Of a stretch of DNA of 64,000 nt, positions 17,877 to 18,686 are shown in pieces. The DNA is from an uncultured bacterium (lineage in GTDB: Bacteria > Zixibacteria > MSB-5A5 > UBA10806): assembly GCA_965602185.1 (NCBI GenBank), contig CBFCYP010000001.1:1413-65412 (forward strand). The letters are read 5' to 3'. A program made the translations under genes and the position numbers. A model generated the notes under the pieces. The model worked only from the letters and a program-made list of their open reading frames with translations. It was not told the origin of the DNA and did no database searches. Position 1 is the stretch's first letter. The number at the start of each line of letters is the position of its first letter.

Positions 17877-18686
17877 ATGGGAAATAAAAGACGCGCCAAA
17901 GGATTGGCGATCCTTTCCGGTTCGCCGCTGCCCGGAAAATCAATTCTCGGCTATGGTCTGGCCGCAAAGCTTGCGGAGGGAAATTCCAAAACACTTTGCC
18001 TGGGACTCCATTTCGATCGGGAAGAATCCTTCAATAACGAATGGCCACGGCATGATTGGGGATGTGTACCGTCCGAAGGAAAAGATCTGAAGGAATTGGT
18101 TTTCACCTGCGAATCGGGATTTGATGCTATTCGCTTTTGCCTGCCGGAAAACATAGCGATCACCGAGGAATTGCTTAAGCTAATCTCCAGGGGTATTAGC
18201 GAGTTTTCATCGAAATACGATTTCATAATAACATCCGCTCCGTACGGATTAAATCCGATAGCCTTGCTTGTGGCCGCTATGTGTGAAGAGATCATTCTTA
18301 TGATCGATCCCGATGCCCCGGCGGTCGCGTCGGCCTATTGTTTTCTGAAAACGCTCACGAACGAAGGCATGGCCGAAAAGACCGCGACAATATTCTCGAA
18401 TGTCAATTCGGCCGAGCAGGCGCATTCTCTTAAGAATAAATTCGATTCTCTGACAGCCGGTTTTTTGGATCTGAAATTGAAAGACGGCGGATTTACTCTA
18501 TCATGGCGGGAGGACGACCGTACCGAATCTACTGAAAAATCCAGATTTCTGCGGGCGGCGGATTATGTGAAAAACGCTCGTCTTGAGACCTTTCGGGCGT
18601 TTCAAAATGAAACAGAAGAAGTAAGCTTCTCCGGCACCATTTCATCATACGGTGAACCGGACGATCTAAAAGTGGATAACCTATAA
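17877..18686 (+). CDS. FlhG/MinD-family protein with degenerate deviant Walker A and Walker B motifs (ATPase-dead-like FlhG paralogue)
   Basis: Collinear with FlhG/MinD. LSGSPLPGKS replaces xKGGxxGKT, so the signature Lys and GG are lost. ITSAPYG replaces hhhDTxxG, and a DPDAPAVASAY block parallels the PEPTSITDAY helix. Sits between flhF and fliA. The ORF-track TTG at 17868 overlaps the flhF stop, so ATG 17877 is preferred. Confidence 0.65.
   Translation: MGNKRRAKGLAILSGSPLPGKSILGYGLAAKLAEGNSKTLCLGLHFDREESFNNEWPRHDWGCVPSEGKDLKELVFTCESGFDAIRFCLPENIAITEELLKLISRGISEFSSKYDFIITSAPYGLNPIALLVAAMCEEIILMIDPDAPAVASAYCFLKTLTNEGMAEKTATIFSNVNSAEQAHSLKNKFDSLTAGFLDLKLKDGGFTLSWREDDRTESTEKSRFLRAADYVKNARLETFRAFQNETEEVSFSGTISSYGEPDDLKVDNL

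Follow-up and report, generated by a model that had tools for sequence, protein, structure and literature searches.

A probable pseudo-ATPase of FlhG descent in a complete flagellar gene cluster of the Zixibacteria

Introduction

Current models of how many flagella a cell builds, and where, are founded on FlhG as an ATP-driven switch (PMC12826062, PMC7226244). The protein is defined by three modules, an ATP-dependent dimer, a membrane-targeting sequence and a DQAxxLR enhancer helix that raises FlhF's GTPase activity (PMC12826062, a 2025 review); the K31A mutant of the Vibrio protein is non-functional, and the FlhG proteins of other species bind FliM/FliY independently of nucleotide (PMC7226244). 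The subject of the present study is a 64-kb stretch of DNA (the window) from an uncultured member of the Zixibacteria (contig CBFCYP010000001.1), and in particular one open reading frame (ORF) on its forward strand, designated X (Table 1), whose product belongs to a protein family designated G4 and is an FlhG orthologue in which the motifs of the ATP site are degenerate. No account of FlhG as a pseudoenzyme or pseudo-ATPase, or of FlhG in Zixibacteria, was found in the literature searched, and the evolutionary review PMC12826062 makes no mention of an FlhG devoid of an ATP site.

Like FlhG and FleN, X occupies the slot between flhF and fliA, adopts a SIMIBI fold and carries a helix of the type P(E/D)xxSxxxAY..(I/L)K, and the basal members of its clade are FlhG proteins with a canonical P-loop. 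Unlike them, it lacks the signature Lys, the Gly-Gly pair, the Asp of both switch I and Walker B, and the enhancer as well as the membrane-targeting helix, belongs to a family in which even the P-loop Lys is variable, and is an acidic protein with an additional conserved acidic tail. A second relevant precedent is McdA, the carboxysome-positioning ParA-type ATPase, which resembles X in having Ser at the signature-Lys position but which, unlike X, keeps all the other invariant active-site residues; it deploys Lys151 in trans, dimerises as an ATP sandwich and has very high ATPase activity (PMC8684754). A preliminary description of X, made from the sequence alone, had identified it as a MinD/ParA homologue in the FlhG position with degenerate Walker A and Walker B motifs, and had suggested a mode of action other than the ATP-driven cycle.

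Homology and fold of X

As a single sequence, X gave no match to the ParA, MinD or CbiA families of Pfam, and scored only 13-15 bits against the NCBIfam MinD models, the cut-offs of which exceed 200 bits. Such searches were insufficient, and the homology of X became clear only through a family profile: a word-indexed search of 5.8 billion proteins gathered eight X-family clusters at 47-100% identity, the named G4 clusters being designated 'hypothetical protein' of Candidatus Zixiibacteriota metagenome-assembled genomes, and the resultant eight-member profile matched MinD (1.4e-7), FleN (2.3e-6) and the FlhG of G. thermodenitrificans (4.8e-4) in the PDB.

An AlphaFold2 model of X built on a 108-sequence alignment attained a predicted local distance difference test (pLDDT) score of 85 and a predicted template modelling score of 0.81, an alignment of only eight sequences having given a pLDDT of 59. 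When this model was submitted to Foldseek, the best structural matches were FlhG/FleN proteins (also known as YlxH and MotR; GtFlhG 4RZ2/4RZ3 and P. aeruginosa FleN 5J1J) with E-values from 2.6e-13 to 5.8e-13. FlhG 4rz3 was recorded at 2.6e-13 and FleN 5j1j at template modelling (TM) scores of 0.72/0.78, the top matches as a group spanning TM 0.66-0.78, whereas matches to MinD were lower (TM 0.57-0.60). On the evidence of the model, the fold of X is that of MinD/ParA (SIMIBI), with FlhG/FleN the nearest solved structures. MinD (E. coli 3Q9L, P. aeruginosa 6RIQ), although the best PDB match at the profile level and a protein of the same fold, was rejected as an identity for X, which has exclusively flagellar neighbours with neither minC nor minE among them, possesses no Walker A motif, other ATP-site residues or membrane-targeting helix, and is structurally less similar to MinD than to FlhG/FleN.

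Orthology and the Zixibacterial series

The start of X lies 5 nt beyond the stop codon of flhF and its end 18 nt ahead of the start of fliA, confirming by ORF and by TIGR03499 and TIGR02479 matches the placement originally proposed, and X appears to be co-transcribed with both genes. Were translation to begin instead at a TTG codon at 17868, the protein would be three residues longer (272 aa); both starts are used by public gene calls.

When 1.84 billion cluster representatives were searched exhaustively with a profile and motifs were tabulated, the homologues fell into four tiers. The first, ordinary FlhG, is characterised by an N-terminal DQAxxLR, SGKGGVGK[ST], D-x-D, DTGAG and a cationic amphipathic C-terminus. 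Members of the second (G2; ~256 aa), named in their sources as Zixibacteria MinD/ParA or FlhG, read SGKGGVGKS and FDCPTG, are without the N-terminal helix and end in FQNET. The third (G3; ~50 clusters from Zixibacteria, e.g. RBG_16_53_22) is distinguished by SG[SA]GGxGRT, an invariant DLCFGWGGL, DPPSGGHP and FQNET, and the fourth, G4, by SGSPxx[GE][KQ]S, [DEG]L[HRYL], ISAPYGLNP and FQNET, beyond which the tail is acidic and conserved. Detection by Pfam falls along the series, from ParA/CbiA/AAA_31 matches in G2 through weaker matches in G3 to none in G4. X thus shares with G2 and G3 its slot, a short N-terminus devoid of the enhancer helix and the SLKxRFDxL..FL and FQNET motifs, but G2 keeps the full deviant Walker A motif and the Walker B Asp (FDCPTG), and G3 keeps Gly-Gly, the Walker B Asp (DPPSG) and DLCFGWGGL.

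The slot itself forms part of a shared block, fliPQR-flhB-flhA-flhF-[X]-fliA-small-small-DUF2225-PilZ, in which it is held variously by a canonical-P-loop FlhG (P0158), a G3 protein (P0243) or a G4 protein (the window, P0002, P0004 and P0008). A tree constructed with 200 bootstraps by neighbour-joining, a distance method only, recovered G4, G3 plus G4, and the whole Zixibacterial clade in 200/200 replicates each, but G3 as a monophyletic group in only 66/200; G4 adjoined P0263, which has an RDDNLLDNLK-type tail, so that G4 would be either nested within G3 or sister to it. Beyond this clade, the next-best profile matches were FlhG-type proteins with DQAxxLR. Given the common slot and the neighbour-joining clade, X is an orthologue of FlhG by descent and position, and would stand at the end of a series in which the ATP site was eroded step by step; the homologue in the FlhG position of the preliminary description is accordingly the positional orthologue of the canonical Zixibacterial FlhG. 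Among the GTDB species-representative genomes, the G4 form was located on two closed chromosomes only, CP070742.1 and CP070813.1.

The intermediate tiers merit observations of their own. In G2 (P0015, P0017, P0157-P0179; loci L002/L003, 6001-6771) the P-loop is canonical, yet the DQAxxLR helix and the membrane-targeting helix are both absent, and the sequence at the position of the FlhG D-x-D is FDAAGG, the same pattern as in the hydrolysis-deficient D60A mutant crystallised as 4rz3; the catalytic switch I Asp is probably missing from G2, an assignment that hinges on the alignment of a loop ~2 residues shorter. In G3 (P0010-P0013, P0222-P0269; locus L005, 6001-6795) both Walker A lysines are replaced (K to S/A and K to R) and DLCFGWGGL stands at switch I, while Gly-Gly and the Walker B Asp are kept and the flhF-fliA slot is again occupied; these proteins may be ATP-binding but hydrolysis-dead.

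The ATP site

Residues 14-22 of X read SGSPLPGKS where the FlhG/MinD counterpart is SGKGGVGK[ST], and residues 116-124 read FIITSAPYG where the counterpart is the Walker B hhhDxxxG. Alignment of the family profile to the MinD and FleN structures, a check proposed in the preliminary description, placed SGSPxxxxS over SGKGGVGKT and S120 over the Walker B Asp of cDSPAG, and upheld the loss of both motifs: in Walker A the signature Lys is replaced by Ser and Gly-Gly by Pro-Leu, exactly as had been read from LSGSPLPGKS, and the ITSAPYG originally reported at Walker B has S120 in place of the Asp. The degenerate nucleotide site claimed for X was moreover found to extend throughout the G4 family, in which the Walker A consensus is SGSPxx[GE][KQ]S. 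At switch I the family reads [DEG]L[HRYL], the catalytic Asp (the position of GtFlhG D60 and MinD D40) being gone in all members, and in X the two Asp positions are taken by G43 and H45. Within the switch II loop S120, A121, P122, G124, N126 and P127 are invariant across the family.

Of the elements of the P-loop, SGSP and the loop residue S22 are invariant across G4, but the G-K pair is not, being represented by PEQS, PGQS, SEKS, AEKS and VEKS, and the generic Walker A pattern G-x4-G-K-[ST] is absent from 5/7 full-length members. X itself (GSPLPGKS) and P0002 still match that pattern; because the G-K pair is unconserved in the family, this residual fit in X is not under selection. Taken together, the loss of these motifs suggests that X would no longer bind or turn over ATP.

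An alternative is that X remains an ATPase or ATP-binding switch by means of non-canonical residues, in the manner of McdA. The McdA precedent itself, the residual G-x4-GK[ST] fit of X, the invariance of SGSP and S22 and the presence of two invariant lysines, K158 and K186, would all be consistent with such an arrangement. However, McdA departs from the canonical site at one residue, whereas in the X family neither Gly-Gly nor the Asp residues of switch I and Walker B survive, and the G-K pair is variable (EQS, GQS, EKS) in 5/7 members. In addition, prolines in a P-loop remove backbone NH groups that bind phosphate, and there are two in the loop of X. K158 and K186 were considered as a relocated signature Lys and rejected, since both occur in relatives that have the classical one; they offer no lineage-specific compensation, and with the other catalytic residues lost X does not belong to the McdA-type ParA subclass. 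Retention of an ATP-dependent activity is therefore judged unlikely.

Other FlhG proteins with altered P-loops

To place these changes among FlhG proteins more widely, Walker A was surveyed in the 142 representatives that ranked lower than the top 14 profile matches, the latter being members of X's own clade. Five of the 142 were full-length proteins without KGGxGK[ST], besides two fragments that did not cover the region. FlhG-like proteins with a non-canonical Walker A included P0041, P0044, P0068 and P0125, the relevant sequences being SGESGADKS, SGHGGAGKS, KGGVGRT and SGKSEVGKT. A further example is the annotated FlhG of Hathewaya histolytica (WP_138209826.1 / WP_420739258.1; P0288, P0119), which reads SGECGVDR[YH] at Walker A and IATGYG at Walker B. 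Judged by these motifs, this protein from a cultured Firmicute would, like X, be P-loop-dead and independently so, but, unlike X, it keeps DQAQKLR, a D-x-D switch I and a C-terminal amphipathic helix (IRWVLNKFFNLF). Natural P-loop-dead FlhG proteins thus seem to arise repeatedly, no characterisation of any having been found, and that of H. histolytica offers an experimentally tractable laboratory handle on them.

Loss of the enhancer and membrane-targeting helices

Only nine residues precede strand 1 of X, and AKG is the sole conserved part among them. The basic N-terminal extension MGNKRRAKG noted in the preliminary description is thus present, but its basic residues are unconserved. No DQAxxLR enhancer helix was found in X or anywhere in the six frames of the window. 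An internal EQAHSLK (aa 180-186; window 18414-18434) was considered as a possible equivalent and rejected, as its helix is part of the confidently modelled core and the G2 counterpart reads DEAxSLK; its likeness to DQAxxLR is probably coincidental.

At the C-terminus, where E245, T246, G253, S257, E260, P261 and K265 are invariant in G4, residues 242-255 of the model have pLDDT values below 50. A cationic amphipathic helix was sought there by hydrophobic moment and charge, and none was detected: the best 11-residue hydrophobic moment (muH) was 0.59 (FRAFQNETEEV) with a net charge of -2, compared with muH values of 0.74-0.96 and net charges of +1 to +4 for canonical FlhG. The last 35 residues of X have a net charge of -5, and the isoelectric points of G4 proteins (4.6-5.1) are well below those of canonical FlhG (7.7-8.6). 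The membrane-bound regulator envisaged in the preliminary description is not supported by a protein with such a tail and an isoelectric point of ~5; the constitutively monomeric one envisaged there would be plausible.

Conserved surfaces and candidate partners

Over the eight family sequences, with identity down to 47%, 60 columns are invariant, and these are concentrated in four regions: the switch II loop, helix 144-165, helix 178-197 and the C-terminal tail. In the first of the two helices (pLDDT 96-98) the invariant residues are P145, A151, S152, Y154, C155, K158, E163 and G164, and Y154 is nearly invariant over all the aligned FlhG sequences; the region corresponds by alignment to the part of MinD that engages its partners, and may likewise serve as a partner-binding surface. 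In the second, S184, K186, F189, D190 and L197 are invariant over G2-G4 (model helix 179-197, pLDDT 96-98). Helix 144-165 and the acidic, predicted-disordered tail are, we infer, the best candidate interaction surface.

As to what might bind there, the FlhF encoded beside X is apparently competent, as judged by its G1-G4 motifs, all of which are present (GPTGSGKS, DTFR, DTSG and TKLD), and its best PDB match is FlhF 8r9r (1.3e-16). The N-terminus of FliM carries an EIDALL motif, and by analogy with the nucleotide-independent binding of FliM/FliY by other FlhG proteins, FliM may be a partner of X, as a candidate only.

A different possibility is that X has been repurposed outside the control of FlhF and the C-ring, for example as a regulator of FliA (sigma-28) or as a part of a system with the DUF2225 or YcgR-like PilZ proteins. 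Such a role would accord with the loss of every module known to contact FlhF (the enhancer helix) or the membrane, with the gain of a new conserved acidic tail, and with the fact that in all Zixibacterial loci it is tightly linked to fliA, DUF2225, PilZ and the two small ORFs. The linkage is, however, identical in the canonical-P-loop relatives and thus not specific to the degenerate form, while the most conserved region of X is the general FlhG 'DAY..IK' helix; repurposing is conceivable, but no specific support for an alternative partner was found, and it is considered improbable.

Two observations concern the potential partners themselves. In one closed G4 genome (CP070813.1; L001, 7174-7995) flhF is called as a 273-aa protein comprising only the NG part, without the N-terminal B domain but with the G1-G4 motifs kept, and the cluster is broken directly upstream of it, genes for a gamma-glutamyltranspeptidase, a cold-shock protein and a GMC-oxidoreductase replacing flhA. 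Within the window, the FliN-like protein (10107-10862; 251 aa) is extended at its N-terminus by ~170 aa of acidic, low-complexity sequence that holds an EIDAL-like LSQEEIEEAF motif and recalls FliY-type proteins.

Selection on X

Codon comparisons by the Nei-Gojobori method, conducted between the window and the two closed chromosomes, gave X a ratio of nonsynonymous to synonymous substitution (dN/dS) of 0.26 at dS 0.47 against CP070742.1 and of 0.32 at dS 0.81 against CP070813.1; the equivalent ratios for flhF were 0.24 and 0.15. Against CP070742.1 the DUF2225 gene gave 0.26, and flhA and fliA gave 0.05. X is under purifying selection of about the same intensity as that on flhF.

The preliminary description had allowed for a decaying duplicate, that is to say a relic pseudogene whose work is done by a canonical FlhG encoded elsewhere. 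The degenerate catalytic motifs would fit that explanation, as would the faster evolution of X (78% amino acid identity against 96-97% for flhA and fliA in the same genome pair). It is contradicted by an intact reading frame in eight lineages, with identity as low as 47% and 60 columns that never vary, by dN/dS values of 0.26-0.32 in the range of flhF and the DUF2225 gene, and by the occupation of the ancestral FlhG slot rather than a secondary locus. Furthermore, no other KGGxGK[ST] (the ParA/MinD-type P-loop) occurs in any frame of the window, and a search with a profile that included the canonical Zixibacterial FlhG found no other protein of the two closed G4 genomes (JSU85_/JSW64_) at E <= 1e-10 among 8000 scored candidates, the genomes not having been scanned whole. 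On this evidence a pseudogene is very improbable.

That an intact P-loop has been masked by an error of assembly, sequencing or frame, a possibility inherent a priori in metagenome-assembled genomes but otherwise without anything in its favour, can be dismissed: the same degenerate motifs recur in eight independently assembled homologues at 47-78% identity (NCBI, ENA, JGI and Logan), which excludes the sequencing error that might have restored KGG, two closed chromosomes of 3.7-3.8 Mb carry the gene, and a P-loop recovered by another start or frame was sought in the X DNA and not found, the other two frames reading RFAAARK and VRRCPEN.

Proposed mode of action

X is likely to be an FlhG turned pseudo-ATPase, with the role of an adaptor or regulator of flagellar assembly that needs no nucleotide, although considerably less weight attaches to any particular partner than to this reading as a whole. 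Two points weigh against it: the residual Walker A fit of X and P0002 leaves room for weak or atypical nucleotide binding, which these two proteins may display, and a second canonical FlhG might be encoded elsewhere in the genome. Degenerate as it is and yet under purifying selection, X makes the non-cycling mode of action suggested in the preliminary description a reasonable one.

The mechanism proposed is as follows. The MinD/FlhG fold and several conserved surfaces are kept. Gone are the signature Lys and Gly-Gly, the Asp residues of switch I and Walker B and, in most members, the P-loop Lys, as are the helix that stimulates the FlhF GTPase and the cationic helix that targets the membrane. 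Such a protein would be soluble, would not undergo membrane cycling and would be unable to stimulate FlhF via the canonical glutamine. It would probably retain a kind of binding for which canonical FlhG needs no nucleotide, such as that directed at the EIDAL-type motif of FliM or FliN/Y, or at FlhF, and the new conserved acidic tail would probably serve as a linear binding motif. With X apparently co-transcribed with flhF and fliA, control would be exerted through stoichiometry or expression instead of an ATP/membrane cycle.

It is proposed more tentatively that the Zixibacteria record a natural, stepwise conversion of FlhG into a pseudoenzyme, with FlhF-dependent control of flagellar placement and number in the phylum resting on an FlhG scaffold that is independent of nucleotide and works by stoichiometry alone. 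In such a series G2 would represent the first step, in which the P-loop is canonical but the enhancer and membrane-targeting helices are already gone, as apparently is the catalytic switch I Asp; G3 would be the second, with both lysines replaced ([SA]GGxGRT); and G4 would be the third, with P-loop, switch I and Walker B all eroded and an acidic C-terminal motif gained. The succession G2, G3, G4 would thereby provide natural intermediates for the order in which activities were lost.

The wider significance lies in the fact that X lacks all three FlhG modules and is nevertheless conserved and under selection in a complete flagellar cluster, thus amounting to a natural separation-of-function allele; the activity that remains would be a nucleotide-independent core activity of FlhG. 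If the stepwise conversion holds, ATP turnover, stimulation of the FlhF GTPase and membrane cycling would each be dispensable for the conserved core function. On a practical note, FlhG would be recorded as missing from genomes such as these by automated surveys, since G4 proteins match no Pfam domain and carry the label 'hypothetical protein'.

Gene neighbourhood and further observations

Table 1. Positions in the window of X, its motifs and conserved regions, and the neighbouring genes referred to in the text.
Feature	Coordinates	Strand	Basis or remarks
X, flhG-derived pseudo-ATPase gene (probable)	17877..18686	+	ORF; ATG start, TAA stop, 269 aa
Degenerate deviant Walker A (P-loop) position, S14-S22, SGSPLPGKS	17916..17942	+	By alignment; MinD/FleN counterpart is SGKGGVGKT
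Switch I (Walker A') position, G43-L44-H45	18003..18011	+	Alignments; MinD/FlhG carry D-x-D here
Walker B/switch II position, F116-P127, FIITSAPYGLNP	18222..18257	+	Aligned to MinD IICDSPAGIE; invariant S120 for Asp
Strongly conserved helix D144-M165, DPDAPAVASAYCFLKTLTNEGM	18306..18371	+	Matches MinD alpha-7 / FlhG 'TPEPTSxTDAYxxIK' region
Clade-defining helix S178-L197, SAEQAHSLKNKFDSLTAGFL, 'SLKxRFDxL..FL' motif	18408..18467	+	Common to G2, G3 and G4
C-terminal region R235-L269, FQNET then conserved acidic, predicted-disordered tail (SFSGTISSYGEPDDLKVDNL)	18579..18683	+	Replaces membrane-targeting helix
flhF, signal-recognition-particle-type GTPase, 466 aa, upstream partner gene	16471..17871	+	TIGR03499, E 1.6e-45
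fliA (sigma-28), downstream gene of conserved flhF-X-fliA block	18705..19463	+	TIGR02479, E 1.1e-78
fliM	9106..10095	+	PF02154, E 6e-63; N-terminus MAQVLSQEEIDALL

X lies in a flagellar supercluster, all on the forward strand, that comprises fliK, flgD, flgE, fliL, fliM, the fliN-like gene, fliOPQR, flhB, flhA, flhF, X and fliA. Two small ORFs, a DUF2225 gene, a YcgR-like PilZ gene and GAF/histidine-kinase genes follow fliA on the same strand, and further on are flgFG, flgA, flgHIJ, flgN, flgK, an flgL-like gene, fliW, a probable glycosylation island, flagellin and fliD. The flagellar gene set of the window is complete.

The two small ORFs directly 3' of fliA (19485-19799 and 19812-20198) encode a Lys/Glu-rich protein of 104 aa and a protein of 128 aa with an N-terminal hydrophobic segment. 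A Pfam search returned no match for either; their position is kept in all the Zixibacterial loci examined, and their dN/dS values are 0.12-0.31. The interval 20263-22187 contains genes for the DUF2225 protein (394 aa, zinc-ribbon plus TPR-like) and the YcgR-like PilZN/PilZ protein, which are always found behind the flhF-X-fliA block; on their 3' side are GAF and GAF-histidine-kinase genes, accompanied in related loci by several response regulators.

Between 34598 and 46838 the window encodes unusually large flagellin-family proteins of 638 aa (FlgL-like) and 751 aa, with genes for FliW, a TPR protein, a TPR-glycosyltransferase (935 aa), an NAD-epimerase/dehydratase and a DegT aminotransferase situated between them; the block between them is probably a flagellin glycosylation island.

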